From: an uncultured Candidatus Saccharibacteria bacterium
Lineage (GTDB): Bacteria > Patescibacteriota > Dojkabacteria > SC72
Length of the DNA stretch: 64,000 bases
Reading direction: 5' to 3'
Assembly: GCA_964405015.1 (NCBI GenBank)
Contig: CAYOME010000001.1
Coordinates: 77,611 to 141,610 of the forward strand
The position numbers were made by a program, and so were the translations under genes. Shown in pieces: positions 5,524 through 63,302 of the stretch (position 1 is the first letter of the stretch; each line of letters starts with the position of its first letter). The notes beneath the pieces are model-generated. The model was not told the origin of the DNA. It made no database searches and saw only the letters and a list, made by a program, of their open reading frames with translations.

Positions 5524-7290
5524 ATGTGCGGTATTTTTGGATACATGGGAAATTCAAATGCCCAATCAATAATTCATCATGGATTAAAAAGGTTAGAATA
5601 TAGAGGATATGACTCATGGGGTATAAGTGTAATAGAGGACGGTAAAATACATACAGACAAGAATACAGGAGAGATACCAAAACAATATATACCACAAAAA
5701 TCTTCTAATATTGGAATAGGGCATACAAGATGGGCAACACATGGAGGAGTAACAATTACAAATGCTCATCCGCATTACTCATCTGATATGAGCTTCTCAT
5801 TAGCTCAAAACGGTATAGTAGAGAACTACATTTCACTTAAAACAATGTTAATTAAAAATGGATATACCTTTTCAACTGAAGTAGATACAGAAGTAATTGT
5901 AAAACTAATTGAAGATCATCTCTCTAATTCACAAAATCTAAAACAAGCATTAATCTCCTCCTTCAAACAACTCGAAGGTAGAAACACTGTCATACTGCTT
6001 GATAGTAAAAGTAATCAAATATATGCCATTAGAAATGGAAGCCCTTTAATATTAGGAATTGGGGAGGAAGATATATATATAGCATCTGATCCATTAGCAT
6101 TCAATCAATATTGTAAAAAAATAGTAGAGATAGATAATGGTGAATTAGTAGAAATAGAGTATAAACAATACAAAATATTTGATATATCAAATAATAAATA
6201 TATTAATAGGGTACCCAAATCGATTGATTACCTTGATACAGAAGTTTCTAAAGGAATATATGATGATTACATGATTAAGGAAATAATAGAACAGAAACAT
6301 ACAATATTAACAGCAACCCAATACACACAAAAAGATCTATTAACCTTAATAACACAGATTAAAAAATCAAATACAGTATATACAATAGGAGCAGGTACTG
6401 CTGGATACAGTGCTGATCAAGTAGCCTACTATTTAAGGAAGATATCAAATATTAAGGCAATTTCTGTAAAACCATATGAGATAGAATCATATATAGAATT
6501 GATAGATAAAGATGATACCGTTCTTGCTTTCTCTCAAAGTGGAGAAACTGCAGATACATTAGAAGTAATCGAAACACTTAAACAAAAAGGTACATATATA
6601 TCAAGTGTAATAAATATGCCCAGCTCAACCCTCGAGAGACTCTCTGATAGTGTCTATATGTCCAATGCAGGTAGTGAAATATGCGTAGCCTCTACAAAGG
6701 TATTTACATCTCAAATATCATTTGGGTATCTTTTAGCTATGTGTCTTGCTGATAAATATTCTTTAGCTAAAAAAGAACTAAGTACACTATCATCAAATTT
6801 AGAAATATTCTTTTCTAAACAAATGTTAAAAAAGATAGAGAATATTTCAAAAGAATTGGTAAAACAAGAACACTTCTTTATTCTTGGTAAAGGTCAAAAC
6901 TTCCATATAGCACAGGAAGGAGCATTAAAGATAAAGGAAATATCGTACAAACATTTTGAAGGCTTTGCAGCAGGAGAACTAAAACATGGAGTAATAGCAT
7001 TAATAGAGAAGGGTACTCCAGTCATCTCTATCATTTCAAATGATGAAAACAAAAAGGATTTAATATCTGCTACTCAACAAGTTAAAGCCAGAGGAGCTTT
7101 AACAATAGGGATTGGTGATAAACAGGAAGAGAATTGTTTTGATTTTTTCATAGAAGTGCCAGATACTGATACTCTGAAATCAATATCTAATGTCATACCC
7201 TTACAACTTCTTTCATATTACATATCAAAGAAATTGGGTAATAATATAGATAAGCCAAGGAACTTAGCTAAGTCTGTAACAGTAAAGTAG
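5524..7290 (+). CDS. glmS: Glutamine--fructose-6-phosphate aminotransferase (GlcN6P synthase)
   Basis: Starts 'MCGIxG' with the Cys2 nucleophile. It has an N-terminal class-II glutamine amidotransferase domain followed by two SIS domains, and is ~588 aa. Confidence 0.95.
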   Translation: MCGIFGYMGNSNAQSIIHHGLKRLEYRGYDSWGISVIEDGKIHTDKNTGEIPKQYIPQKSSNIGIGHTRWATHGGVTITNAHPHYSSDMSFSLAQNGIVENYISLKTMLIKNGYTFSTEVDTEVIVKLIEDHLSNSQNLKQALISSFKQLEGRNTVILLDSKSNQIYAIRNGSPLILGIGEEDIYIASDPLAFNQYCKKIVEIDNGELVEIEYKQYKIFDISNNKYINRVPKSIDYLDTEVSKGIYDDYMIKEIIEQKHTILTATQYTQKDLLTLITQIKKSNTVYTIGAGTAGYSADQVAYYLRKISNIKAISVKPYEIESYIELIDKDDTVLAFSQSGETADTLEVIETLKQKGTYISSVINMPSSTLERLSDSVYMSNAGSEICVASTKVFTSQISFGYLLAMCLADKYSLAKKELSTLSSNLEIFFSKQMLKKIENISKELVKQEHFFILGKGQNFHIAQEGALKIKEISYKHFEGFAAGELKHGVIALIEKGTPVISIISNDENKKDLISATQQVKARGALTIGIGDKQEENCFDFFIEVPDTDTLKSISNVIPLQLLSYYISKKLGNNIDKPRNLAKSVTVK

Positions 7291-48224: not shown

Positions 48225-51200
48225 ATGAAAACAAGGATTAAGGGAAGATCATTTCCAATACTCTTTCTAGGACTACTTACTCTAATACCCTTACTCCTTT
48301 TCGCTTTTTTCACATATAAAGACTCCTTTGTTAAACTAGTAAATGCAGATGCATTTACAGATGCATGTGTTAATCAGTGTGTAACATCGACTGGTGACCC
48401 TGACTTTATGAGTGATGGATGTAGCTATCTTTGTAATGATGGAAATACCACATATGGTTGTTTACTTGCTTCTGAAATAGGATGGTTTGATCCAGCATAC
48501 TCTGTAGATGCACCACAGTGGTGTATACATGTACAAACTCCAACACAAATGTGTATTGATAGATGTAAGCTTCAAAACGATAGCTATGATGATTATGAAT
48601 CAAAGTGTACTACTACTTGTACAAATGCAAATGGAGACAGTACTTCTTGTTGGCTAATGTCAGAAATGAATTTCGATGCAAGTGTAAATCGTGAATTCTG
48701 TTCTCTTTTGGATTTTGTACCAACAGGTTCAGGAACTTCAGATGAAATGGCAATCTTTCCAGCCTCGAATTACTACGATGTAGAAACAGGATATTCTCAA
48801 AATATCACAGGTACAATAACCTCTCTTTATCCAATTAGTTATCTTGATATAAGAGAAGACTTGGATGGAGGATTTTACGGTTCTTGCGATTACGAACAAA
48901 TAGGTGAAAGTGAATATTCTTTTTCCTGTTACACTGGGACATTAAGTGATCCAAATTCATCATATTTCTATTTTCTTTTTGGAGAAAATGCGAATTCTGA
49001 ATATGTTCAATCCGATTATATAGAATTACATACCTACGTTTTAGAAGAACCTGGAGGAAATCCAGAAATTAGACTTACCTTGGTACCATCAAAGACCATT
49101 AATGACACTTTCCTAGTAAGAGGAATAGCTGCTAATCCAGGAGGTACAAATATTACTGATATAAATATCCTTTCTAACTATGTAGGAGGCTTCTCCACTG
49201 CAACAAGCCCATGTACAGCAGTTGATGGTACCCTAAATTCAAATTCTGAAGAATTTAGTTGTTCATTTCCAATTACAAATACTGATGGTATTAATGAATA
49301 TTGTGTAGAATACTATGATCAAGATCTGAATCGTATAGAAACATGTTCACAGGTCATTCATACAACTAATGTCACAGATGGGTTAGTGGGATATTGGTCT
49401 TTAGATGGTCTTACACCTTTAAATGAGATAACCGGATATGGTGGTATAGGGGCTATAAATCATGCTAACGGTCTTGATTCTGTACCAGGATATTTAAATG
49501 ATGCAATGAGTTTTTACAATGGCTCATACTTCTATACTAGTGATTACAATGAACATTTTTCATTCTCCAATCCAGATTCCGAATTTATCGTTGAAACATA
49601 TGTTTACTTAAATGAGGCCCCTGGTGGATACCCAATACTTGTTTCTAAAATGTCTGATGGAGTAGATGGTATGGGAATGCCACAATATTCCTGGTCATTA
49701 GGTTTAACAAATGCAGGAGGTATTTCTTGTGCAATAAATGGTTATGAAAATAGGATAATGACTCATGCAGAAGCAGCTATTACTTTCGGACAGTGGAACA
49801 AGTTAGCCTGTTCTTGGAATGCGGGAACTCATGAATTAAAAGGATATATCAATGACGAAGAAGTAGCTTCTACAGTATTAAGCCCTGAAATAATTCCATA
49901 CGCTTCAGATAAAAATATTACCTTTGCTGCAAGACAAGACGGGTATGAAGCTTTTACAGGCCAATTAGATGAAATAAAAATATATGATTTAACTGTACCA
50001 ACAGGATCTGGTTCTGTAGATTACTTTTCAAATCTTAACACTCCAGCAGTCATCGAAGATGTTTCCACCTTTAATCTTACAGGGACATCTGCACATACTG
50101 GTAATATTGAGAATGTACAGTACAGGAAATACGAAGTAGGATTAGCTGAAAATGACAACTGGCAAAACTGTACATGTACAGATGGATCATGTAATTTCTC
50201 AGAAGAAGAATTCTCATGTTCAATATCCAATATTTCAGAATCTGGGACATATGCATATCAACTTAGATTAGTATCAGAAGGTGTAAATCTTTCTCCAAGT
50301 GATTGGGAGACTGCCGAAGTAACAAGAGAAGATACGAGAGAGTTAATAGCCTGGTGGGGATTTGATAATGCTACAACTCTGTATGATTACTCAGGTAACA
50401 ACTATAACGGAACAATAGGAGGTACAACTTCAGTAAGTACATCTCCAGTAACAGGATCATCCACCAATACATTCGATACCAATACTATCGCTACAATTCC
50501 AGATCCAACAGGAGCTTTTGATTTTGCAGAAGAGAATGCTCATTACGAATTAGAGATGAGAATTAAACAAAATTCAGATACTCTCGCAGGTGATTACGAT
50601 TTCATTCAGAAATACAGAAATGATGGTGGTAATTCATGGGATATTGATTTCATGACTAACAGAATTAATGGAGCTATATATTCAGCGAACAACGAATTCT
50701 TTAGAACATCTCAATCTACACCAGGTACTACGATACTCTCTCCAGATACATGGCATACAGTTAGATTTGTATACAGTAATACCGATCAAACAGTATATAT
50801 TCAAGTAGATGGAAATACCCCAGAATACTTTGGAAGTACGAGAGAATTCCCTCTTCAAGTATCTACAGGAAACTTAGTCATTAAAGCAAACAACTACTTC
50901 AGAGGTGAAATAGATGATATTAAGATATTTAGAGGAGGTGATGCAAAAGCTCCTGATGTATCCTTTGAACAATTCTCAGATTTAGACAGAGTGACAAGTA
51001 ATGTTGTAAACCTCGATGTTACAGTTACTGATCAAACAGGAATTGAAAATTTTGAATATCTCTTCCACAATAGTGACTATGGAATAGATCTTGATTCACT
51101 AGGATGGATTCAGGCAACAAATCCTACAACCGGAAACTGGGGAGATAAACAATTGGTATTTAACATTGAGTCTTTACCACTTACAGATGGTCCTTGGTAT

Positions 51201-54200
51201 TTGTATGTAAGAGCTACAGACTCTTACAACTTTAAACACTTGTATGAAAATGGATGGTTTACTACTTACTCAACAGCTTCCCCATCAGCAATGCCATATC
51301 TCCATTTCATTGTTGAAGCACAAGATACAACCCCACCATATATTTTTGCTCATTCCATTATTCCAAACCCTACGGTAGATAAAAGCCCAGGTGTAAGAGG
51401 ATATGTTAGGGATTTTGAACAACAAAATACTGGAGATACAAGTAGTAATATCTTAAGTATTGAATATAGACTTAATGGAGGCAATTGGAATTTAATACCT
51501 TCATTGGATAATTCGTATGATTCTCCAAATGAAGAATTCTATTTCTTACTAAACGATCTTACTCCAGGTGAATATACCTTAGATATTAGAGCAACAGATG
51601 CAAGTGGAAATAGCACAGATGATAATGATTCATCACATACAGAAACCTTCACCATATACGAACTAGAAGAAACACCAGATATATCAGTAATCAGTAAGGA
51701 GGAGGATTTTAATGACCATACATATCATGATGTTCTTTTCTCTGATGGTGTTTGGGGAAATGGGATACTTAGATTAAGACAAAGTATGGAATTTAACCAA
51801 ACAACAGCACTCTTTACAAATAATAATGATTTTGGTTGGGAATATGGAGATACAAGAACAGGAGTAATAGAGGCATACGATGGGAATGTATGGGTAATTA
51901 CAAATAATAACAATGTAATACTTTACAACGTAAATACTACCCAATATGAAGAATATCTACCATTCAAAAGTACATTAGAGAGAATATCCGATATTAAAGA
52001 TTTTGTTAACAATGGAAGAAGATATTTACTCATTTCTTACGAGAATGGAAGTACATTAATATATGATTTAAACAATACTCCTTTTGATTCATCAGATGAT
52101 ATAGGTCCAGTCGACTATGGTACAAAAGATGGTTTCAATCTCTTTAGAATGTTTACAGATGTTAGTATAGATACAAGAAACGGAAAGTTTGCATATTTTG
52201 CAGAAGTAAATAATCCATCTCCAGAAGGAACTGTATACTTCTATATATGGATCGATACTAAAGGAACCATAATGGATGTATCAGATGATACATATGTTAC
52301 ATGGGGAGCAGAGGATAACTTGTTCTATAGAAATGAAGCATATGGATACCAAGATGTAAATGACTTCACAGCAACATACTTTGATCAATCCTCAAACATC
52401 TTCTATGCCGCAAGTTTTGATTGGTCAATATACCAATGTACAGATGGCGGAACACCAGAGGATAAGAGTGATGACTCATGTCAAAGATTTGCATATCCAA
52501 ATGGAACATACCAAGTCTTCGATATTCTTAAAGATAGCAATGGACAATTCTGGTTTGGAGGAAATCTTGGATTAACGAGATTGAATAACAAAGGAACACT
52601 TAGTATCTCCGATGATGAAAAAGTAACAGTTCTTTCAGCTCAAGACCTTGGTTCTCAAGAAATCTCTAAATTAGGGTGGATCGAAGGAGAGTATCCAGTT
52701 GGTGATGAAATATGGATGATGACAAGGAATGGATACCTCAAAGCCCTAGAGATGAACTTCACATATAATGATACGTTAGATGATACTTACTACAATTATA
52801 AAATAAAGAATCTTTCTAACAGACAGGGTAATCTAGGACTTTTTACAGTAGGAGATAGAAATACAATATATACATCAATACAAGGATACGGTTTACAAAA
52901 GATAGAGCTTGAGAGAGATTTTGAAGATTTAAATAAAATAGAGATGCTTCCTATACCTCCAGATGGTATTCTTGCAATAAATTACATAGACTTAGAAGAA
53001 GTACTTGGATCTGTAACCAATGGAAGTGCATATACATTCAATGACTTAGTCTCATATGAAGTCTCTAATGACTCAGGAGTAACTTGGTATCCAATATCAG
53101 AAGGTAATAGGGTAGAATTCCCAACTCCAGATTATAAATTAAAACTAAGAATAAATCTTACAAAGGGATCTTCTCCAATAATTGATTTAATCCGTCTTTC
53201 ATATATAACATATCCTGAAAAAGATCCTGATCTCTGTGATATTAGGATTAACACACTTAAACCGCAAATCTCTACAATACAAAACAATGGTTCCAAGAGC
53301 CTTGTCTTAAATTTTACAGGTATAAGTGGTGAACCAAATATTCAAGGATATACTTTAGAATATGGACTCTCTGAGACAGTATTCCAATACACTCCAGTTT
53401 CATTAAATACCTCAACAACTACTTACACATTAAATGACCTGTCTCCAAATACTAAATACTTCTTTAGAATTAAAGGTATTACTGATTGTACTACTAGTGA
53501 TTGGTCCTCAGTCCTATCTGCAACAACATCTTCGATAGTTACAACAACACCAAAAGCTCCAACCCCTAAGACACCAGCTCCTACAGAAGAACCACTACAA
53601 TCCATTTGTGGAGAGATCTGTAATATTGATTCCGATTGTACAGATTCAAACAATTTCTGTAATTTGGGAAAATGCGAATTAAAAAGTAGTCAATGTGATA
53701 TTGGACAGAAACTTGATGATAATAAGTGTTCATGTGTACAAGAAACTTCAATTGGAGGAATGTGTGGACAACCATGTACTGGGAACTCACAGTGTACAGA
53801 AGCAAACAATGAGTGCAATGGTGATAAATGTGTATTAATTTCATGCCCATCTGGATACAAAATAACCAATGATAGCTGTGGATGTATATTAATAACTAAA
53901 GAGGACAATACCAATGATAAACAAGGAATATTTGAAAAATTTCTTAACTTTATCCAAAACTTAGATATTCCGAAGACATCTGCAACAACAACCGCTGCAT
54001 TAGTTGGAGTATCTTTACTTTCAATCTTCGTTGGCAAATCTCATGTATTAGGATATGCTCTTCAATCTACTGGTTGGTTCTTATCAATATTTAAGATAAG
54101 GAAAAAAGACCAAGAATATGGATTGGTTTACAATTCTATTACAAAAGAACCTATTAATAGAGCTATTGTAAGAATCTATAACGAGAATAATAAACTTGTA

Positions 54201-54896
54201 TTAACTACAGTTACAAATATATATGGAGTATTTGATGTAAATATTAAGGAAAAAGGTAAATATACAATAGAAGTCTCTGATAAAGATACACAATTCCCTT
54301 CAAGATTAATCACAGGAAATAGTGATGGTATATATAACAATATATATAAAGGTGAAGAGTTCTTCTTTGATTCAGATTCTCCTTTAAACTTCTCTATACC
54401 ACTAGACCCTATCAACGAAAAATCAGAAAAATATACACAAACTATATTAAGAAATCGAATTTCTACGGTAATAAATCTCTTACAAAATATATTCTTTGTT
54501 GTCGGAATCTTACTTTCTACCTACCTATTTATTAATTATCCATCCACTATAAATACCCTAATTATGATTCTTTACATCATAATATTAATAATAAACATAT
54601 ATATACTTTTGAAAGGATTCAGAAGATATGGAAGTATTAAGAATCAATATAACGATACAGTTCCATATTCTGAAATAGGATTAAAGGATTTAGAGTTTGG
54701 TGAAATAAAATATCAAAGAATAGCAGACGAAAAAGGAAGATATAGATTCATTATAGAAGGTGGAGATTATGAATTAGTATCTCTATCTCCTAAATATAGT
54801 ATTGATGAGGCTCAACAAAAATATATAAAGAGTATGAATAATGGTATGAAAGTAATTAATAGGGATGTATATATTAAAGAGAAAAATATAGTATAG
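48225..54896 (+). CDS. Giant (2223 aa) cell-surface protein with Cys-rich modules, concanavalin/LamG-like jelly-rolls, FN3 domains, a Pro/Thr linker, EGF-like Cys repeats, a carboxypeptidase-regulatory-like domain and C-terminal TM helices
   Basis: N-terminal TM or signal segment, a FN3 consensus 'YTLEYGL...YFFRIKGI...W', a 'TTTPKAPTPKTPAPT' linker, a 'CxxxxxC' EGF-like tandem and 'IVRIYNENNKLVLTTVTNIYGVFDV'. A hydrophobic C-terminal region is also present. Confidence 0.7.
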   Translation: MKTRIKGRSFPILFLGLLTLIPLLLFAFFTYKDSFVKLVNADAFTDACVNQCVTSTGDPDFMSDGCSYLCNDGNTTYGCLLASEIGWFDPAYSVDAPQWCIHVQTPTQMCIDRCKLQNDSYDDYESKCTTTCTNANGDSTSCWLMSEMNFDASVNREFCSLLDFVPTGSGTSDEMAIFPASNYYDVETGYSQNITGTITSLYPISYLDIREDLDGGFYGSCDYEQIGESEYSFSCYTGTLSDPNSSYFYFLFGENANSEYVQSDYIELHTYVLEEPGGNPEIRLTLVPSKTINDTFLVRGIAANPGGTNITDINILSNYVGGFSTATSPCTAVDGTLNSNSEEFSCSFPITNTDGINEYCVEYYDQDLNRIETCSQVIHTTNVTDGLVGYWSLDGLTPLNEITGYGGIGAINHANGLDSVPGYLNDAMSFYNGSYFYTSDYNEHFSFSNPDSEFIVETYVYLNEAPGGYPILVSKMSDGVDGMGMPQYSWSLGLTNAGGISCAINGYENRIMTHAEAAITFGQWNKLACSWNAGTHELKGYINDEEVASTVLSPEIIPYASDKNITFAARQDGYEAFTGQLDEIKIYDLTVPTGSGSVDYFSNLNTPAVIEDVSTFNLTGTSAHTGNIENVQYRKYEVGLAENDNWQNCTCTDGSCNFSEEEFSCSISNISESGTYAYQLRLVSEGVNLSPSDWETAEVTREDTRELIAWWGFDNATTLYDYSGNNYNGTIGGTTSVSTSPVTGSSTNTFDTNTIATIPDPTGAFDFAEENAHYELEMRIKQNSDTLAGDYDFIQKYRNDGGNSWDIDFMTNRINGAIYSANNEFFRTSQSTPGTTILSPDTWHTVRFVYSNTDQTVYIQVDGNTPEYFGSTREFPLQVSTGNLVIKANNYFRGEIDDIKIFRGGDAKAPDVSFEQFSDLDRVTSNVVNLDVTVTDQTGIENFEYLFHNSDYGIDLDSLGWIQATNPTTGNWGDKQLVFNIESLPLTDGPWYLYVRATDSYNFKHLYENGWFTTYSTASPSAMPYLHFIVEAQDTTPPYIFAHSIIPNPTVDKSPGVRGYVRDFEQQNTGDTSSNILSIEYRLNGGNWNLIPSLDNSYDSPNEEFYFLLNDLTPGEYTLDIRATDASGNSTDDNDSSHTETFTIYELEETPDISVISKEEDFNDHTYHDVLFSDGVWGNGILRLRQSMEFNQTTALFTNNNDFGWEYGDTRTGVIEAYDGNVWVITNNNNVILYNVNTTQYEEYLPFKSTLERISDIKDFVNNGRRYLLISYENGSTLIYDLNNTPFDSSDDIGPVDYGTKDGFNLFRMFTDVSIDTRNGKFAYFAEVNNPSPEGTVYFYIWIDTKGTIMDVSDDTYVTWGAEDNLFYRNEAYGYQDVNDFTATYFDQSSNIFYAASFDWSIYQCTDGGTPEDKSDDSCQRFAYPNGTYQVFDILKDSNGQFWFGGNLGLTRLNNKGTLSISDDEKVTVLSAQDLGSQEISKLGWIEGEYPVGDEIWMMTRNGYLKALEMNFTYNDTLDDTYYNYKIKNLSNRQGNLGLFTVGDRNTIYTSIQGYGLQKIELERDFEDLNKIEMLPIPPDGILAINYIDLEEVLGSVTNGSAYTFNDLVSYEVSNDSGVTWYPISEGNRVEFPTPDYKLKLRINLTKGSSPIIDLIRLSYITYPEKDPDLCDIRINTLKPQISTIQNNGSKSLVLNFTGISGEPNIQGYTLEYGLSETVFQYTPVSLNTSTTTYTLNDLSPNTKYFFRIKGITDCTTSDWSSVLSATTSSIVTTTPKAPTPKTPAPTEEPLQSICGEICNIDSDCTDSNNFCNLGKCELKSSQCDIGQKLDDNKCSCVQETSIGGMCGQPCTGNSQCTEANNECNGDKCVLISCPSGYKITNDSCGCILITKEDNTNDKQGIFEKFLNFIQNLDIPKTSATTTAALVGVSLLSIFVGKSHVLGYALQSTGWFLSIFKIRKKDQEYGLVYNSITKEPINRAIVRIYNENNKLVLTTVTNIYGVFDVNIKEKGKYTIEVSDKDTQFPSRLITGNSDGIYNNIYKGEEFFFDSDSPLNFSIPLDPINEKSEKYTQTILRNRISTVINLLQNIFFVVGILLSTYLFINYPSTINTLIMILYIIILIINIYILLKGFRRYGSIKNQYNDTVPYSEIGLKDLEFGEIKYQRIADEKGRYRFIIEGGDYELVSLSPKYSIDEAQQKYIKSMNNGMKVINRDVYIKEKNIV

Positions 54897-55917: not shown

Positions 55918-56541
55918 CTACGATTTCAATTGCTTCCAATATATACTGGATCTTTGTATAAAGTGGTTCATAGCAAAGGTACCCATAATTAATGCTAGTT
56001 GAGCATGCCAGAAAAGAAAATCAAATTCTAAGTCATACAAAGAAGTAATTTCATATCTCAATATTAAAAATATACCGAATCCGAATGTAGGAACAAGAAA
56101 GAATATACCCATTAAAGTAGTAAACAATGCATTGAATTTTAATATTGTAAAACCCTTAATATATCCCTTCTTGGATATATAGTTAAGACCCCAATACAAT
56201 GCTGTAACAAGAAGAATAGGTAAGAGTAATTTATATGAGGCTTCCTTTTGAGCATCACCAATACCAAATGTCTCTAACAATCTATAAGAGTTAGGGTTAT
56301 GATCTCTTCCTTCCCCTCCCTTATCTTTGAAAGATTGTGTTATATCAGTACCACAATATTCTCTAATATCTACAAATCTTTCATGAGATCTAATATATTT
56401 AGAAATATCATATACCTTGTCCTCAAATATTACCCAACAATCATTCTCTAAATTATGCTTAGATATCTCTTCTTTGGTATATGCAAAAAGAGGTGTAACA
56501 GATAACAAAAGTAAAACAAAAGAGAGTAAATACTTTTTCAC
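55918..56541 (-). CDS. Membrane protein with a cytochrome-b5-like domain (HPGG replaced) and C-terminal TM helices
   Basis: 'DCWVIFEDKVYDISKYI.SHERF...CGTDITQSF' follows the cytochrome-b5 fold pattern but has HERF instead of HPGG. Confidence 0.3.
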   Translation of the reverse strand: MKKYLLSFVLLLLSVTPLFAYTKEEISKHNLENDCWVIFEDKVYDISKYIRSHERFVDIREYCGTDITQSFKDKGGEGRDHNPNSYRLLETFGIGDAQKEASYKLLLPILLVTALYWGLNYISKKGYIKGFTILKFNALFTTLMGIFFLVPTFGFGIFLILRYEITSLYDLEFDFLFWHAQLALIMGTFAMNHFIQRSSIYWKQLKS

Positions 56542-56562
56542 AAAATTACTTACTAAAATTAT

Positions 56563-57321
56563 CTATACAAGTTTAGGGAGTAATACTCCTGTATTTTTTA
56601 CATATTTAGCATATTCCTCATTACCCTCATATCTCTTCATATATGATTTCTCTAACGTAGGAATACCTGATACGAAAAGAAGAAGATATGAAATATATAT
56701 TGGAGAAACAATTGTTAACAATGCGATACCATTTAAATATGGAAGCGTAAATACAAATACACCAATCCACATAAGGATCTCACCTAGATAGTTAGGATGT
56801 CTTGAATATTTCCATAGACCTGTATTAATCCATTTACCTTTGTTCTCTTCCTTATTCTTAAATATATATTTTTGAATATCAGCAATAGTCTCAATTGTTA
56901 AACCAAATAGTGAGATAAACAAACCTATTATGGAGAATGTATTTAATTCTGTATTACCTTCATAAAGAAGTACATATGTAGTAGGAAGTAATATTACAAA
57001 TATAGAGATAGCTTGTAATATCCAAAAGCCTCCGAATTTTGTAATACTCTCTCTAATACCATCAAATCTTTTATCTGTTTTAGTTTTTAATATCCTAACA
57101 AACAAATATATTGATATTCTTAATCCCCATAACACTATTAGAGAAGTTAATACCCATTTATATACTGATATATATTCATATCCCAAATACAAAGCGAATA
57201 GGGAAGAAAAGATAAAAGTTAAACCGTATGAAAGATCTGTTACTTTGTCGGTTTTCCTTAATGCTGCATATATGAAAAAGAGAACTTGAAGAATGAATAT
57301 AAAAAGGAATACGTACAACAT
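56563..57321 (-). CDS. DUF1295/ICMT-like membrane methyltransferase-fold protein
   Basis: 'WKYSRHPNYLGEILMWIGVF' C-terminal signature of the ICMT/NnrU/DUF1295 superfamily; multi-TM. Confidence 0.55.
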   Translation of the reverse strand: MLYVFLFIFILQVLFFIYAALRKTDKVTDLSYGLTFIFSSLFALYLGYEYISVYKWVLTSLIVLWGLRISIYLFVRILKTKTDKRFDGIRESITKFGGFWILQAISIFVILLPTTYVLLYEGNTELNTFSIIGLFISLFGLTIETIADIQKYIFKNKEENKGKWINTGLWKYSRHPNYLGEILMWIGVFVFTLPYLNGIALLTIVSPIYISYLLLFVSGIPTLEKSYMKRYEGNEEYAKYVKNTGVLLPKLV

Positions 57322-57665: not shown

Positions 57666-59264
57666 TTACACTTCCATTAATTTCCGGATTGTTCTTACCT
57701 TAGAAGTCGCTAATTCAATGATTGATACTGCATCTACAAACACATTACCATTGTAATCCCCCTCTTGTTGAAGTTTGTTAACATGAATATCAAATTGTTC
57801 CTGAATATGAGATACCAATTCAATCTCCATCTTGCGAATTTCCTTTATCTTTTCTTCAGATGGTTCAAGAATTAGAGGTACAACATATTTTAATAGCTCT
57901 AAATATTCACTATGAAGAGAATTCAACTCATCAATACACACATCCTTATCCTTGTATCCTAAGTCATGCATTCTATTAAAGACATTTGATAGATCCTTTC
58001 CCAAATCACCAATCTGTTCAATTGTATTGGATATTTTTACTAGTAATACACTGCTATGAGCATCAACAATTGATAATCTCTTTTTAGCAACATCCACTAT
58101 CGCTTTAGTTATCTCTTCATCTAAGTAGTCATTTAAGGTCTCTAGCTTTTGTATTTTCATTTTAGTCTGCTTACTTGGGTTGTAATATATACTAATTGCT
58201 TCTTGATATATTTTAATAGTGTTTTGAATTGAATATACTAATTCCCTTCTAATATTTTGTAATTTAACTTCTGGAGTACTCTTTCCACTGTTTAGATATT
58301 TTGGTTTAAACAATACTTCCTCTTCTTCACCTCTAACTATCTTTTTTACAAGGCTTTCAAATGGAGAAAGTAATATGAGGAAAAGAATAGAGTTAATTAC
58401 ATTAAACAAAAAATGTGCTAAAGCAGCCTGATTCGCAACTTCCTCTACTAAATATCCCAAGACACTAATGAATTGGGGGAGAAGAAGCATGAATATGAAA
58501 GTACCAATGAGGTTGAAAAGAAGATTTGCAACACCAGCTCTTTTCGCATGTAAAGAGAGTCTAAAGGATGCTATAAAGGCAGTAAAGCTAGAACCTACAT
58601 TTGCACCTAAAATCATAGGAATAGCTACTTCAACAGGGATTAGTCCCTCAAGAGAAAGTATTACTACTATACCAGAAGTAACAGAACTAGAATGAATTAT
58701 TAATGTTAGTAATGCTGATACTAAGTAAGCAAATATTGGATTCGAAAGATCAGATAATATTTCTTTCACCATTAGATTGTCACTTAATGGAGCAATAGCA
58801 GAGGAAAGAAGATTAAGAGTAAATAGTATAAAACCTAAAAAGAATATTGGCTTCCCTATTAACTTAAACCTCCTACCTGCAAATCTTAATATAGTACCAA
58901 CAATTATCAATATCGGAGCAATAGCTTGGGAATTTATCAATACCAACTGAGCAGTAATTGTTGTTCCAATGTTTGTACCAAAGATAATGCTTAGACTTTC
59001 ACTAAAGGAAATTACTCCTGTGTTAACAAGTATAACTGCTATCACTGAAACTGCAGAACTAGATTGTATAACTGCAGTGGATATAGCTCCAGTTATTAAT
59101 CCTACAATCCTAAATTTCGCTAATTCCCCTATTAAGTTCCTAAATTTCTCTGCAGCTAATATTTGAAACTCATTACTTAAACTATCGATAGCATAGAGAA
59201 ATAGTATTAAGGCAGAGGTAATACCAAGAAATATATTTAGATATATTGGATCAATAGATATCAT
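57666..59264 (-). CDS. Na+/phosphate cotransporter (NptA/YjbB family) with a C-terminal PhoU-like domain
   Basis: Two internal transporter repeats with 'QSSSA...GTNIGTT' motifs, plus a C-terminal helical PhoU-like domain. Confidence 0.75.
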   Translation of the reverse strand: MISIDPIYLNIFLGITSALILFLYAIDSLSNEFQILAAEKFRNLIGELAKFRIVGLITGAISTAVIQSSSAVSVIAVILVNTGVISFSESLSIIFGTNIGTTITAQLVLINSQAIAPILIIVGTILRFAGRRFKLIGKPIFFLGFILFTLNLLSSAIAPLSDNLMVKEILSDLSNPIFAYLVSALLTLIIHSSSVTSGIVVILSLEGLIPVEVAIPMILGANVGSSFTAFIASFRLSLHAKRAGVANLLFNLIGTFIFMLLLPQFISVLGYLVEEVANQAALAHFLFNVINSILFLILLSPFESLVKKIVRGEEEEVLFKPKYLNSGKSTPEVKLQNIRRELVYSIQNTIKIYQEAISIYYNPSKQTKMKIQKLETLNDYLDEEITKAIVDVAKKRLSIVDAHSSVLLVKISNTIEQIGDLGKDLSNVFNRMHDLGYKDKDVCIDELNSLHSEYLELLKYVVPLILEPSEEKIKEIRKMEIELVSHIQEQFDIHVNKLQQEGDYNGNVFVDAVSIIELATSKVRTIRKLMEV

Positions 59265-59319: not shown

Positions 59320-60138
59320 TTGAAAATATTCAATATCCTGGATAGGATATATATAATTAAATTTTTTAAACATAGTATGGATAAATACAAAAATCTAAGA
59401 ACCTACAACATAGTAATGGGGTTCTTTCACTTTGTACAAGCAGTACTCATGGTTGTACTAAGTAATGACTTTGCTCTACCTGTAGTTACAAATTACCTAA
59501 AGTTCAATACACAGACTCTCTCGTTACAACCATTAATGGAAAATCTAACAGACTTAAGAGTAGGGTATCTAGTAGCATCCTTCCTCTTCCTTTCATCCAT
59601 AGCCCACTTTACAATTTCCCTTCCTAAGGTATATGAATGGTATGTAGCAAATCTAAAAAAGGGTATCAACTATGCTAGATGGTATGAATATTCACTCAGT
59701 TCATCAGTAATGATTGTAGTAGTCGCTATGTTAGTAGGTGTATATGACCTAAGTACATTAATCCTTCTCTTCTTCATGAATATGATGATGATTCTCTTTG
59801 GATTGATGATGGAATTACATAACCAGACTACTAAAAAGACTGACTGGACATCATACATATTTGGATGTATTGCAGGAGCTATCCCATGGGTAGTAATTGC
59901 ATTGTATCTATTCGGGTCTGGTGATGGTGAGAACAAAGCTCCTGACTTTGTATATTGGATATTCTTTAGTATTTTTGTATTCTTTAATTCCTTTGCCTTT
60001 AATATTGTTCTTCAATACAAAAAGATTGGTAAATGGAGCGACTATACATTCGGAGAGAAGGTATATATATTACTAAGCCTTGTAGCAAAGACATTACTTG
60101 CATGGCAAGTATTTGCTGGAACATTAAGACCTGTATAA
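59320..60138 (+). CDS. Heliorhodopsin
   Basis: Seven TM helices. 'YNIVMGFFHFVQAVLMVVLSNDFALPV' matches the heliorhodopsin TM1 signature. The TM7 Schiff-base lysine lies in 'LLSLVAKTLLAWQVFAG'. Confidence 0.8.
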   Translation: MKIFNILDRIYIIKFFKHSMDKYKNLRTYNIVMGFFHFVQAVLMVVLSNDFALPVVTNYLKFNTQTLSLQPLMENLTDLRVGYLVASFLFLSSIAHFTISLPKVYEWYVANLKKGINYARWYEYSLSSSVMIVVVAMLVGVYDLSTLILLFFMNMMMILFGLMMELHNQTTKKTDWTSYIFGCIAGAIPWVVIALYLFGSGDGENKAPDFVYWIFFSIFVFFNSFAFNIVLQYKKIGKWSDYTFGEKVYILLSLVAKTLLAWQVFAGTLRPV

Positions 60139-60147
60139 GTATATATA

Positions 60148-60654
60148 GTGGGGAAATTAATAACCGTATTCGACAAAATGCAAAATGGCTATCAATATGA
60201 GCTTACAGAAGATATTGGTAGCCATTTTCATCCAGATTTCAAACCAGAGTTAACTCCTAAAGAAATGCTTGAATTAGGAGTATTTGGAGGCAAATATATG
60301 ACAGATTGTCAGAATGAATTCCCCAAAGAATGGTTTACTCATGCCAAGCTATCCCCTCTTAAAAAGAATATCTCTCTTAATTACTTTAAAGTAGATGCAA
60401 GTATGCCATTGTCATATTGGCAAGAAAAAGGTTGGATATATGAAGATGATCCTAGAGGATGGTTTCAATGGTATTGTAGATATTACATGGGTAGACGATT
60501 ACCAAAGGAAGATCAAAGACAGATTAAAAGATGGAAATCAATAACTAGACATGTACAAGCAGTAAAGAAAAATTGTAAGAGTGGAGATTTAGAATGTAGA
60601 AAAAAACAAAGACAAGCACTTCTACACTGGGCATATGATAGTAGAAAATATTAA
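60148..60654 (+). CDS. Conserved hypothetical protein co-transcribed with the heliorhodopsin
   Basis: Only a 9-nt gap after the heliorhodopsin stop. Trp/Arg-rich, with 'GWFQWYCRYYMGRR'. No known motif recognised. Confidence 0.45.
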   Translation: MGKLITVFDKMQNGYQYELTEDIGSHFHPDFKPELTPKEMLELGVFGGKYMTDCQNEFPKEWFTHAKLSPLKKNISLNYFKVDASMPLSYWQEKGWIYEDDPRGWFQWYCRYYMGRRLPKEDQRQIKRWKSITRHVQAVKKNCKSGDLECRKKQRQALLHWAYDSRKY

Positions 60655-60678: not shown

Positions 60679-61863
60679 ATGGTAAAATATTGGGATATGG
60701 AAAAAACAATATATTTAGACAACGCTGCTACTACAAAAATACACCTAGAGGTACTTGAATCAATGATGCCATATCTAACAGATACATATGGTAATCCATC
60801 AAGTATATATACCTTGGGTAGAAAAAGCAGAGAGGCTATAGATTTATCCAGAGACAAAATTGCAAAGATATTAAATGCAAAATCTTCAGAGATCTATTTC
60901 ACAAGTGGAGGTAGTGAGTCAGATAACTGGGGGATTAAGGGCGTTGCTTTTGCTAATGAGAAAAAAGGTAAACATATAATTACTACAAATATTGAACATC
61001 ATGCAGTACTTCATACTTGCCAATATTTAGAAAAATATGGATTTGAAATTACATATCTTCCTGTTAAAGAAAATGGAATAGTGGATATTAATGATCTAAG
61101 GAATGCAATTAGGGATGATACCATTCTTGTATCAGTAATGTTTGCAAACAATGAAATTGGAACAATCCAACCTGTTAAAGCAATAGGGGAAATTACAAAA
61201 GAGAAGGGGATATATTTTCATACTGATGCTGTACAAGCAGTAGGTAATATTCCAATTGATGTAGAAGAGTTAAATATAGATTTAATGTCACTTTCAGGTC
61301 ATAAATTTAATGGACCAAAGGGAGTGGGTATTCTCTACGTTAGAAGTGGAGTAAATATTCAAAGCTTAATACATGGAGGAGCTCAAGAGAGAAATAGGAG
61401 AGCTGGTACAGAGAATGTAGCAGGTATAGTAGGAATAGCTAAGGCATTAGAATTGGCAACTAAGGATATTGAAAAAAAGAATGAATACCTTTCTTCATTA
61501 AGAGATATGACAATACAAGGATTAATGAAAAGAATACCCGATACAATATTAAATGGTGATCCCAATCTTCGATTACCAGGGAATGTAAATGTCTGTTTTA
61601 AATATATAGAGGGGGAATCAATATTACTAATGCTAGATATGAAAGGTATATATGCTTCTAGTGGATCAGCATGTACCTCAGGATCCCTAGATCCTTCACA
61701 CGTACTTTTAGCAATAGGTAGACCTCATGAGATTGCTCATGGGTCCTTAAGGTTAACATTCTCAATGGAAAATACTAAAGAGGATGTAGAATATATATTA
61801 GATGTATTACCTCCAATTGTTCAAAGGCTTAGAGATATGTCTCCATTAATTTCTAAAGAATAA
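60679..61863 (+). CDS. nifS: Cysteine desulfurase (NifS/IscS)
   Basis: PLP-lysine motif 'SLSGHKFNGPKG' and active-site Cys in 'SSGSACTS'. Confidence 0.9.
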   Translation: MVKYWDMEKTIYLDNAATTKIHLEVLESMMPYLTDTYGNPSSIYTLGRKSREAIDLSRDKIAKILNAKSSEIYFTSGGSESDNWGIKGVAFANEKKGKHIITTNIEHHAVLHTCQYLEKYGFEITYLPVKENGIVDINDLRNAIRDDTILVSVMFANNEIGTIQPVKAIGEITKEKGIYFHTDAVQAVGNIPIDVEELNIDLMSLSGHKFNGPKGVGILYVRSGVNIQSLIHGGAQERNRRAGTENVAGIVGIAKALELATKDIEKKNEYLSSLRDMTIQGLMKRIPDTILNGDPNLRLPGNVNVCFKYIEGESILLMLDMKGIYASSGSACTSGSLDPSHVLLAIGRPHEIAHGSLRLTFSMENTKEDVEYILDVLPPIVQRLRDMSPLISKE

Positions 61864-61867
61864 TCAT

Positions 61868-62251
61868 ATGACAGGATACAGTGAAAAAGTTATGGATCAT
61901 TTTTTTAATCCTAGAAATGTAGGAGTAATAGAAGATGCAGATGCAATTGGTGAAGTTGGTAATCCTAAATGTGGGGATATAATGCGTATGTATTTAAAGA
62001 TAGAGAAGGATGTAATAGTAGACGTTAAATTTCAAACATTTGGATGTGGTGCTGCTGTAGCTACTAGTAGTATGGTTACTGAATTAATTAAGGGTAAAAC
62101 AATAGACGAGGCATTAGAGATTACAAATAAACAGGTAGCTGATGCATTAGATGGTCTTCCCCCAATTAAAATGCATTGTTCTAATCTTGCAGAATCTGCA
62201 GTTAAAAAAGCTATTGAGAATTATAAATCAAAGAATGGAAACAAAAAGTAA
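61868..62251 (+). CDS. nifU: Fe-S cluster scaffold protein (NifU/IscU)
   Basis: 'GNPKCGD', 'FGCGAA' and 'HCS' conserved Cys blocks. Confidence 0.85.
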   Translation: MTGYSEKVMDHFFNPRNVGVIEDADAIGEVGNPKCGDIMRMYLKIEKDVIVDVKFQTFGCGAAVATSSMVTELIKGKTIDEALEITNKQVADALDGLPPIKMHCSNLAESAVKKAIENYKSKNGNKK

Positions 62252-63302
62252 TAAAAAAGTAATGCTAGGAATGAGTGGAGGAGTAGATAGTTGTGTATCT
62301 GCATATCTACTTAAACAACAAGGATATGATGTAATAGGGGTACATATGCAAGTATGGACAGACACATCACATGATGATGGTTGTTGTTCTCTTTCATCAG
62401 TTGAAGATGCTAGAAGGGTAGCCAATTTAGTTGGTATCCCTTTCTATGTTTTTAATATGAAAGAGGATTTTCAGAAGTATGTAATTGAATATTTTGTAAA
62501 AGAATATGAATCAGGAAGAACACCAAATCCATGTATCGCTTGTAATAGGTATGTGAAGTTTGGAGCTTTGTTAGACAAGGCAAAGAGTATGGATATCGAA
62601 TATATATCTACTGGTCACTATGCACGTATAGAGGAGAAGGATGGGAGATATCTTCTTAAAAAGGCAGTAGATAGTAATAAAGATCAAACATATGTACTTT
62701 ACAACCTTACACAAGATCAACTCTCTAAAACGATATTTCCTTTAGGAGGATATATTAAAGAAGATGTGAGAAAGATAGCTAAAGAATTAGGTTTTTCTGT
62801 TGCTTCTAAACCAGATAGCCAAGAAATATGCTTTGTTACAGATAACGATCATAATAGATTCATCAAAGATCATACCGGGAAAGATCCTCTACCTGGAGAT
62901 TTTGTAGACATAGATGGGAATATATTAGGTAAACATGAAGGTATTACAAAATATACAATTGGTCAAAGAAGAGGGTTAGGTGTAGTTACTGGTAAACCTA
63001 TGTTTGTTCTTGATATAGATGCAACAAATAACCAGGTAATACTAGGAAGTAACGAGGATCTCTTTACAGATGAAATAGTTACAAACGATCTTAATTGGAT
63101 ATCGATAGGTGAATTAAAAGAACCAATGAATGTAAAAGCAAAGATTAGGTACAAAGCTACTGAGTCTGATGCATTACTAACACCAATTTCAGATACCGAA
63201 GTAATCGTAAAGTTCAAAGAAAAACAAAGAGCTTCTACCTCAGGCCAATCAGTCGTCTTCTACGATGGAGATACGGTAATAGGTGGTGGAATAATTGTAT
63301 AG
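62235..63302 (+). CDS. mnmA: tRNA 2-thiouridylase MnmA
   Basis: PP-loop 'LGMSGGVDS' and the 'CIACN' Cys block. The start is moved to the ATG at 62235 (METKSNKK...) rather than the track's 62151, which would overlap nifU by 100 nt. Confidence 0.85.
   Translation: METKSNKKVMLGMSGGVDSCVSAYLLKQQGYDVIGVHMQVWTDTSHDDGCCSLSSVEDARRVANLVGIPFYVFNMKEDFQKYVIEYFVKEYESGRTPNPCIACNRYVKFGALLDKAKSMDIEYISTGHYARIEEKDGRYLLKKAVDSNKDQTYVLYNLTQDQLSKTIFPLGGYIKEDVRKIAKELGFSVASKPDSQEICFVTDNDHNRFIKDHTGKDPLPGDFVDIDGNILGKHEGITKYTIGQRRGLGVVTGKPMFVLDIDATNNQVILGSNEDLFTDEIVTNDLNWISIGELKEPMNVKAKIRYKATESDALLTPISDTEVIVKFKEKQRASTSGQSVVFYDGDTVIGGGIIV

Follow-up and report, generated by a model that had tools for sequence, protein, structure and literature searches.

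The window analysed here, 64,000 nt of the Dojkabacteria contig CAYOME010000001.1, carries a heliorhodopsin (HeR) gene followed on the same strand, after 9 nt, by a gene for a 168-aa soluble protein, which we call p168. Heliorhodopsin is a light-sensing membrane protein with seven transmembrane (TM) segments that binds retinal. Our explanation, to which we give a probability of about 0.6, is that the two genes became neighbours by accident, through gene loss, and that p168 is a stress-set protein most linked with the membrane protein TspO. That the adjacency is derived and restricted to a lineage, and no evidence of a dedicated sensor–effector pair, we regard as very probable.

Gene order and history of the heliorhodopsin–p168 adjacency

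The region contains the following features (positions in the window):

55918–56541, minus strand: cytochrome b5 domain fused to a membrane segment (Pfam Cyt-b5, E 1e-14), adjoining the DUF1295 gene
56563–57321, minus strand: DUF1295 membrane protein (Pfam DUF1295, E 7e-66)
57666–59264, minus strand: Na/Pi cotransporter (Pfam Na_Pi_cotrans, E 1e-47), divergent from the heliorhodopsin gene
59377–60138, plus strand: heliorhodopsin gene, 253 aa plus stop (PF18761, NCBIfam HeR equivalog, alignment with TaHeR 6IS6)
60139–60147, plus strand: spacer gtatatata, 9 nt from the heliorhodopsin stop to the GTG of p168, read from the sequence
60148–60654, plus strand: p168, a 168-aa basic, Trp-rich soluble protein belonging to a very large unannotated family
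60679–61863, plus strand: NifS-type cysteine desulfurase (Pfam Aminotran_5, E 2e-90), 24 nt past p168
61868–62251, plus strand: NifU_N-type Fe-S scaffold (open reading frame, ORF; orthologues with PF01592)
62235–63302, plus strand: MnmA tRNA 2-thiouridylase (ORF; 355–356-aa orthologues with tRNA_Me_trans domains)

Both ORFs at the centre of this study are present in the sequence and in the ORF list as the initial annotation had described them, and the 9-nt spacing it had given can be read directly from the sequence. It had further proposed that the two proteins are functional partners, with p168 possibly a transducer or a regulated enzyme. We scanned one genome per species for p168, obtained at least 598 loci and kept the best 80, whose p168 is 63–75% identical to that of the window. 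These loci span Planctomycetes, Flavobacteriales, many Alphaproteobacteria, Gammaproteobacteria, Firmicutes, Actinomycetes, Chloroflexi, Thermotogae, Spirochaetes and several groups of the candidate phyla radiation (CPR). A tblastn search with the window heliorhodopsin as query found no heliorhodopsin within ±6 kb of p168 at any of the 80 loci.

The reciprocal set consisted of the 80 closest heliorhodopsin loci from metagenomes (57–89% identity), 67 of which had enough downstream sequence, and p168 was found downstream in only two of these 67 (L111 and L118). The heliorhodopsin of L111 is 89% identical to that of the window and belongs to the same lineage; its spacer is comparably short. L118 represents a second lineage, with a heliorhodopsin and a p168 that are 62% and 64% identical to those of the window and are separated by a 20-nt gap. 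Heliorhodopsins that are 76–79% identical to ours (L093–L101) sit in other contexts. The adjacency does not recur across heliorhodopsin-bearing lineages (2/67 and 0/80) and is broken in sister Dojkabacteria, and p168 is common where no heliorhodopsin is nearby, as in Proteobacteria, jumbo phages and giant-virus metagenome-assembled genomes (MAGs). The synteny is not conserved, and the proposed functional partnership fails on this check.

Other neighbours of the heliorhodopsin were also recorded. In L093 the order is nifS-nifU-mnmA-HeR, followed by an unrelated 168-aa ORF, and p168 was found neither within ~2.3 kb upstream of nifS nor elsewhere in this 10.8-kb locus. L093 (2332–5762) and L094 (2–940) carry the heliorhodopsin on the other side of the cluster, as nifS-nifU-mnmA-HeR and with no p168, and in L169 nifS-nifU lies 2.2 kb downstream of the heliorhodopsin. 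In several lineages the heliorhodopsin keeps to within a few kb of nifSU-mnmA while its exact position shifts from one to another. This heliorhodopsin clade has no other conserved neighbour: the commonest, an unnamed family of 184-aa ORFs on the same strand and ~340 nt downstream, occurs in 12/80 loci (L093–L172), and a family of ORFs with sequence motifs of ABC-type ATPases in 11/80, both too little conserved for a partner. Directly upstream of the L118 heliorhodopsin lie genes for two paralogous proteins of 130 and 209 aa (20–1044, plus strand), neither matching Pfam and both ending in FKITWD.

The gene orders of close relatives document how the adjacency arose. The nearest relatives of p168 (75–82% identity) are Dojkabacteria, one of which (P0001) is labelled HGW-Dojkabacteria-1 by its source. 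Their arrangements and that of the window are, from left to right with strands in brackets:

Lineage A (P0001, P0003, P0006, P0007): GH3(-), DUF1295(-), Na/Pi(-), HeR(+), 71-aa(-), 137-aa(-), M23 peptidase(+), 171-aa(+), 786-aa(+), p168(+), nifS, nifU, mnmA
Lineage B (P0002, P0009): DUF1295(-), Na/Pi(-), 73-aa(-), 135-aa(-), p168(+), nifS, nifU, mnmA
Window: DUF1295(-), Na/Pi(-), HeR(+), p168(+), nifS, nifU, mnmA

The Na/Pi cotransporter gene forms the left edge of the variable region and is the same flanking gene in lineages A and B. In lineage A the heliorhodopsin is 84–88% identical to that of the window and is separated from p168 by five genes; two of these are on the opposite strand, so that heliorhodopsin and p168 cannot share a transcript there. 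Lineage B has no heliorhodopsin in the region and retains p168; P0009 is without the 73-aa gene and has only a 136-aa one. The 71/73-aa and 135/137-aa genes are orthologous between the two lineages (~50% identity), and in sister Dojkabacteria this small opposite-strand pair, without a Pfam match, stands between p168 and the Na/Pi or heliorhodopsin gene (L081 683–1333 and L087 5184–5896, both minus strand). Because the 71- and 137-aa genes are shared by lineages A and B and are absent from the entire 64-kb window, we conclude that the heliorhodopsin–p168 adjacency came about via loss of the intervening genes.

The ancestral order in this group of Dojkabacteria would have been DUF1295(-), Na/Pi(-), HeR(+), 71-aa(-), 137-aa(-), [M23 peptidase, 171-aa, 786-aa], p168(+), nifS, nifU, mnmA. 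The heliorhodopsin and the intervening genes vary in presence across the group, with p168 staying upstream of nifS-nifU-mnmA. In all Dojkabacteria relatives examined p168 lies upstream of these three genes, and in most lineages it is directly adjacent to them, with a gap of 24–45 nt to nifS. Where a gene is inserted between p168 and nifS, it encodes a 1454-aa protein (L258) or a ferredoxin–thioredoxin fusion (L111). Outside this group, NifS was found near p168 in only 1/80 loci.

In the window itself, the heliorhodopsin and p168 genes have the layout of an operon, being on the same strand and separated by a short gap with no terminator. No terminator-like site was found on the plus strand between 59000 and 63600, the heliorhodopsin–p168 gap included. 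Promoter-like sites at the locus carry no weight, since shuffled sequence has more of them. The likely mnmA start (METKS) gives a 17-nt overlap with the end of nifU, and the orthologues overlap likewise. From the sequence, co-transcription of heliorhodopsin, p168, nifS, nifU and mnmA is plausible. On our explanation the two genes are adjacent, and probably co-transcribed with nifS-nifU-mnmA, only through this lineage's loss of the genes that had separated them.

The heliorhodopsin and p168 proteins

The window heliorhodopsin is an ordinary, typical family member near TaHeR. It matches Pfam PF18761 over profile positions 1–242 of 242 (E 1.4e-103; 345.8 bits, cutoff 26.7) and the NCBIfam HeR equivalog NF038020 with 356.6 bits (cutoff 100), so that it falls in the family by full-length matches above curated cutoffs. 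The ORF as listed opens at TTG 59320 and ends at 60138, with the stop codon at 60136–60138. The real start is most likely ATG 59377 rather than TTG 59320, because the homologues are 253 aa long and begin with MDKYKNL; 253-aa orthologues are present in the sister lineages. The protein aligns end to end with the solved structure of the Thermoplasmatales TaHeR (6IS6; E 1.6e-81). In this alignment SLVAKTLLAWQ of TM7 is in register with SLVAKSALAWQ of TaHeR, and RWYEYS with RWFEYS, so that both a TM7 lysine and a TM3 glutamate are in place; from established knowledge of TaHeR we take these to be the Schiff-base lysine and the counterion. The initial identification of the heliorhodopsin is borne out by PF18761, NF038020 and 6IS6, and that of its TM7 lysine by the 6IS6 alignment. 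At ~60% identity to TaHeR, the protein is predicted to share its inverted topology (N-terminus inside) and to bind retinal.

The GTG start of p168 at 60148 is supported by the alignment of its N-terminus with homologues (MGK..V.DKMQ). The initial annotation had called the protein Trp/Arg-rich. It is indeed Trp-rich (7 Trp, 4.2%) but not Arg-rich: with 10 Arg (6%) and 20 Lys (12%), the 20.4-kDa protein is better described as basic (pI 9.3). The arginines cluster in the conserved core DPRGWFQWYCRYYMGRR, and the protein contains four Cys that are conserved in the core clade. No known motif had been recognised in p168, and we found no match in Pfam, NCBIfam, PHROGs, PADLOC or PDB sequences; the best hit of a profile search against the PDB (E 0.21) was judged to be chance. 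No significant sequence match placed p168 in a described family, and in the sources searched no member carries a meaningful name. The exact p168 sequence of the window was absent from the contig index searched.

The family, of which the window p168 is a free-standing member, is very large. A word-indexed search saturated at no fewer than 8000 clusters at 90% identity, all with E ≤0.001, and a full hidden Markov model (HMM) scan of 1.84 billion representatives gave 2667 clusters at 50% identity. Members are 65–80% identical across bacterial phyla. They occur in 50 rhizobial plasmids or chromids, where they are labelled 'hypothetical protein' if annotated, in 15 phage genomes of 145–290 kb (including YerA41, Carin-5 and pVa-21) and in at least 405 IMG/VR contigs, many of them giant-virus MAGs with ~50% identity. 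Two records are labelled as eukaryotic, from the jakobid Andalucia godoyi and the liverwort Calypogeia fissa, and in both homologues a long, basic stretch of low complexity extends the N-terminus. The liverwort sequence has its best relatives among Alphaproteobacteria and may thus stem from transfer or contamination. Searches seeded with these two sequences for a named eukaryotic member (e.g. from Chlamydomonas) returned only unnamed or bacterial sequences. Culturable hosts of p168 include Rhizobium etli CFN42, Sinorhizobium medicae, Nitrobacter and Acetobacterium.

In a diverse alignment of 56 sequences P37, P59 and R116 were invariant and 27 further positions were at least 90% conserved, among them Y17, G44, F46, G48, Y50, E57, W62, N78, W91, W96, D101, G104, W105, W108, R111, G115, R117, D122, Q125, R128, R134, Q156 and W161. 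The four Cys are only 57–80% conserved across the family, which makes a family-wide metal or Fe-S site unlikely. Literature on the motif GWFQWY and on DUF5872 yielded nothing useful. Fusion partners were considered as a functional clue and proved uninformative: DUF5872 is fused to p168 in two representatives, and in one a phrog_19090-like domain in which we read a methyltransferase-like motif, with no function gained. A 1696-aa multi-domain p168 ORF is probably a gene-calling read-through.

AlphaFold modelling of p168 with 35 close homologues (70–80% identity) gave an unusable model with a predicted local distance difference test score (pLDDT) of 57. With 56 diverse homologues (down to 41% identity) the pLDDT rose to 97.3 and the predicted template modelling score to 0.91; what made the difference was the diversity of the alignment, not its depth. 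In the better model a β-hairpin at the N-terminus (residues 4–8 and 13–19) is followed by about seven helices. Foldseek found nothing for it in the PDB and one unnamed viral homologue in BFVD, so that the model could not be matched to a solved fold; the best structural match listed is the Mimivirus R596 Erv-type sulfhydryl oxidase (PDB 3td7). On present evidence, the predicted fold has no solved relative.

Genomic neighbourhoods of p168

TspO is a tetrapyrrole-binding membrane protein with five TM segments whose role in bacteria is debated. No neighbour of p168 is universal among the 80 loci, several families being recurrent. TspO/MBR, the most recurrent, is present in 7/80, including loci of Saccharibacteria, unclassified MAGs, Nitrobacter and Rhizobium, and the TspO HMM detected none in the 80 heliorhodopsin loci or in 80 viral loci. 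A one-sided Fisher test done by hand gave p ~0.007 for TspO near p168, the lineages not being independent. In the Saccharibacteria locus L019 and in L020, from an unclassified MAG, TspO follows p168 after 16–22 nt; in L050 and the Rhizobium loci L078 and L080 it precedes p168. The distance is 0.7 kb in L064, and in Nitrobacter (L073) TspO is 3.2 kb downstream. TspO adjacency recurs in unrelated lineages and in variable order.

The rhizobial plasmids agree with this picture. In R. etli CFN42 (plasmid p42e) and in S. medicae the order is fasciclin, DUF378, TspO, p168, with a 4-nt overlap between tspO and p168; the p168 homologues, RHE_RS25990 of R. etli CFN42 and a 'hypothetical protein' of S. 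medicae, are 62–67% identical to the window protein. DUF378 precedes p168 also in the Saccharibacteria locus L019. On a Mesorhizobium plasmid, a TspO–p168 pair is divergent from an extracytoplasmic function sigma/anti-sigma pair, and a fasciclin gene accompanies them; the anti-sigma factor was considered as a ChrR and rejected, being of the RskA type. On pSymA of S. meliloti 1021 (NC_003037.1, 589922–590233) we noted a truncated match covering query residues 14–117, with no annotated feature. Truncated p168 is also found on other S. meliloti plasmids, and the model strain seems to carry a copy in decay.

Other families also recur near p168. Six loci from Alphaproteobacteria or unclassified Proteobacteria encode a membrane protein of the fatty-acid hydroxylase family directly upstream of p168 on the same strand; in a seventh locus it is ~3.8 kb upstream. 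DUF1295 is near p168 in four loci of different phyla (L003, L012, L015, L056); in the actinomycete L015 it lies 9 nt upstream and is itself preceded by DegV and catalase. Every Dojkabacteria locus that extends past the Na/Pi cotransporter on its upstream side also has DUF1295, as does the window, where DUF1295 and the cytochrome b5 protein lie 2.8–3.6 kb upstream of p168 on the other strand. A cytochrome b5-related protein was found 2.8 kb from p168 in L035. The cytochrome b5 fusion and DUF1295 of the window (55918–57321, minus strand) could form a pair of electron donor and membrane enzyme.

The Lysobacterales locus L056 reads CMAS, DUF1295, amine oxidase, CMAS, p168, SOUL, glutathione S-transferase, Pirin; L038 and L046 share its amine oxidase–CMAS–p168 core, and L046 also has SOUL. 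L267 has MsrA, MsrA and MsrB near p168, and L269 has glutathione S-transferase, nitroreductase, MarR and a short-chain dehydrogenase/reductase (SDR). Two MAGs, one of Thermotogae and one of Coprobacillaceae, have YbgA-like DUF523/DUF1722 proteins adjoining p168; in Escherichia coli, ybgA precedes the photolyase gene in the same operon. A locus of another kind is L270 (5980–6492; plasmid of Phaeobacter sp. G2 from an Emiliania huxleyi culture), where p168 shares 4 nt with the end of the plasmid's replication-initiation gene and the gene opposite encodes a GAF-domain protein; this context fits neither TspO nor the stress theme.

Several of these families are known from responses to singlet oxygen and light. 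Genes induced by singlet oxygen in Chlamydomonas in dependence on SAK1 encode cyclopropane fatty acid (CFA) synthases, SOUL, fasciclin-like, DUF1365, DUF1295 and DUF2177 proteins and methionine sulfoxide reductase, and CFA synthase is part of the sigmaE singlet-oxygen response of Rhodobacter (PMC4067076). In Vibrio cholerae, CFA synthase and photolyases are induced by blue light (PMC5241685). As several recurrent neighbours of p168, cyclopropane-fatty-acid synthase (CMAS), SOUL and DUF1295 among them, are of such families, a loose link of p168 with light stress is plausible. The published neighbour groups of heliorhodopsin include photolyase, MerR, SDR and DUF2177 (PMC11109279). Since heliorhodopsin and p168 both occur among light- and oxidative-stress genes, they appear to share a theme rather than to be specific mutual partners, and any co-expression in the window may be meaningful as part of that theme, not as that of a dedicated transducer; this keeps the idea of a partnership from being wholly set aside.

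Among the phages, YerA41 carries p168 (YerA41_065, L173 4998–5531; its product annotated as a virion structural protein) with ribonucleotide reductase on one side and an ATP-grasp protein resembling glutathione synthetase on the other; a dUTPase is close by. In pVa-21 p168 adjoins thymidylate synthase. YerA41 and Carin-5 (Carin5_00075, L255 3998–4531) gave the fullest phage matches, and the DNA of both contains thymidine hypermodified with oligosaccharides (PMC9023294, PMC12686479). The p168 contexts of Carin-5, immuto and vB_pir03 consist mostly of hypothetical proteins, and the neighbourhoods in giant-virus MAGs show only lineage synteny.

Elsewhere in the window we noted a glmS ribozyme/riboswitch (RF00234; 5354–5490, plus strand; 60 bits, full length) directly upstream of a 588-aa ORF (5524–7290) that is presumably glmS, and a full-length LOOT RNA (RF03000; 31851–31977, minus strand; 57.9 bits against a gathering threshold of 46.4), which Rfam describes as a small-RNA motif of unknown function. 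Two very large ORFs lie on the plus strand at 48225–54896 (2223 aa) and 56–4567 (1503 aa).

Readings of p168 and comparison with known systems

We infer from these neighbourhoods that p168 may be a soluble protein acting in the response to photo-oxidative or oxidative stress, with TspO as its closest associate; for this part of our explanation the odds fall somewhat short of even. As a soluble protein of such a gene set, p168 might use a conserved surface of Trp, Tyr, Arg, Asp and Glu to bind or process a small ligand, planar or phosphorylated. This molecular activity is a guess, to which the clustering of conserved aromatic, Arg, Asp and Glu residues lends itself.

Several observations weigh against the explanation that we prefer. 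The window has no TspO by the TspO HMM, and no photolyase occurs within 6 kb of p168 in the 80 loci. The stress theme is seen in only ~20–27 of them, and many others have unrelated neighbours; because several of the supporting loci share clades, the independent events are fewer than these counts. The ORFs around p168 were moreover taken from a crude selection of our own of non-overlapping frames, which were clustered and named with Pfam. The heliorhodopsin-then-p168 order in L118, a distant second lineage, means that the adjacency has arisen or persisted at least twice, above naive chance. Finally, if the contexts in phages and giant viruses suggest anything, it is nucleotide metabolism.

This last point leads to the reading of p168 as a factor of nucleic-acid or nucleotide metabolism, dealing with a modified base, a nucleotide or DNA damage and carried by viruses as an auxiliary gene. 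The viral spread of p168 (the IMG/VR contigs and the 15 large phage genomes), the ribonucleotide reductase/dUTPase context in YerA41, the thymidylate synthase neighbour in pVa-21 and the hypermodified thymidine of YerA41 and Carin-5 DNA (PMC9023294, PMC12686479) are consistent with it, as are the pI of 9.3, the conserved Arg and aromatic residues and the basic N-termini of the eukaryote-labelled homologues. However, the 80 bacterial loci offer no consistent nucleotide-metabolism neighbour, the other phage contexts are uninformative, giant-virus synteny reflects relatedness, and the predicted structure shows no similarity to known nucleic-acid enzymes. We consider this reading unlikely.

About as unlikely is a more far-reaching reading, in which p168 is a soluble companion of membrane proteins with small chromophores, of TspO with its tetrapyrroles and, in some CPR bacteria, of heliorhodopsin with retinal, and belongs to an ancient photo-oxidative-stress module common to bacteria, aquatic phages and giant viruses. 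If this were true, p168 could bind a photosensitising ligand or render it harmless, or could pass on the state of the membrane protein, the heliorhodopsin–p168 operon of the window would be one functional instance of the module, and the family would be new and structurally unprecedented.

It is very unlikely that p168 works with nifS-nifU-mnmA in sulfur mobilisation, Fe-S assembly or tRNA 2-thiolation, for instance as a sulfur-relay or tRNA-binding accessory. Its constant place upstream of these genes in every Dojkabacteria relative examined, 24–45 nt away where adjacent, its basic character, its conserved Arg and the four Cys conserved in the core clade would suit such a role. Against it are the single NifS neighbour in 80 loci outside the lineage, the genes inserted before nifS in L258 and L111, the 57–80% conservation of the Cys across the family and the cluster of L093, which has no p168 in its 10.8-kb locus.

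Likewise very unlikely is that p168 is a dedicated cytoplasmic transducer or light-regulated enzyme of heliorhodopsin: the shared strand, the 9-nt gap without a terminator, the same arrangement in L111 and the more distant L118 and the precedent for regulation of operon neighbours by heliorhodopsin (PMC9529153, PMC11109279) speak for it, but none of the 80 p168 loci has a heliorhodopsin and only 2/67 heliorhodopsin loci have p168 downstream, sister lineages have opposite-strand genes in between or p168 without heliorhodopsin, p168 abounds in Proteobacteria, phages and giant-virus MAGs, and it is outside the ten published heliorhodopsin neighbour groups (PMC11109279).

The explanation that we retain, an adjacency left by gene loss and a p168 linked with stress genes and TspO, matters in two ways. 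The function of heliorhodopsin is still being worked out via its operon neighbours, so that a false partner would mislead. In addition, p168 represents one of the larger protein families still without annotation, with a confidently predicted fold that lacks a solved relative, and TspO and the singlet-oxygen and light-stress genes provide a first functional lead that is testable in culturable hosts.

Three known systems can be compared with the locus. The first is the set of genes responding to singlet oxygen or blue light (Rhodobacter sigmaE-ChrR, Chlamydomonas SAK1). Although p168 is never listed in these regulons and neither photolyase nor ChrR was seen beside it, members of their families are found around p168 in Lysobacterales, an actinomycete, Flavobacteriales and others, and the window has DUF1295 3 kb from p168.

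The second is formed by the heliorhodopsin operons, whose reported partners are glutamine synthetase (AbHeR), photolyase (HeR–photolyase) and the ABC transporter OmrDE (OcHeR). As in these operons, the heliorhodopsin gene of the window is followed within a few bases, on the same strand, by the gene of a soluble protein with which it is probably co-transcribed. In contrast to the reported partners, p168 belongs to none of the ten published groups, follows heliorhodopsin in 2/67 loci only and is not its neighbour in the sister lineages. A heliorhodopsin with a co-directional gene is a known arrangement; p168 is new to it as the neighbouring family, and this pairing is barely conserved.

The third is the TspO/MBR operon of Rhizobiaceae, consisting of fasciclin, DUF378, TspO and a hypothetical protein. 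The membrane protein that precedes p168 in the window is a 7-TM retinal protein and not TspO, but the hypothetical protein of the rhizobial operons is itself a p168 homologue.

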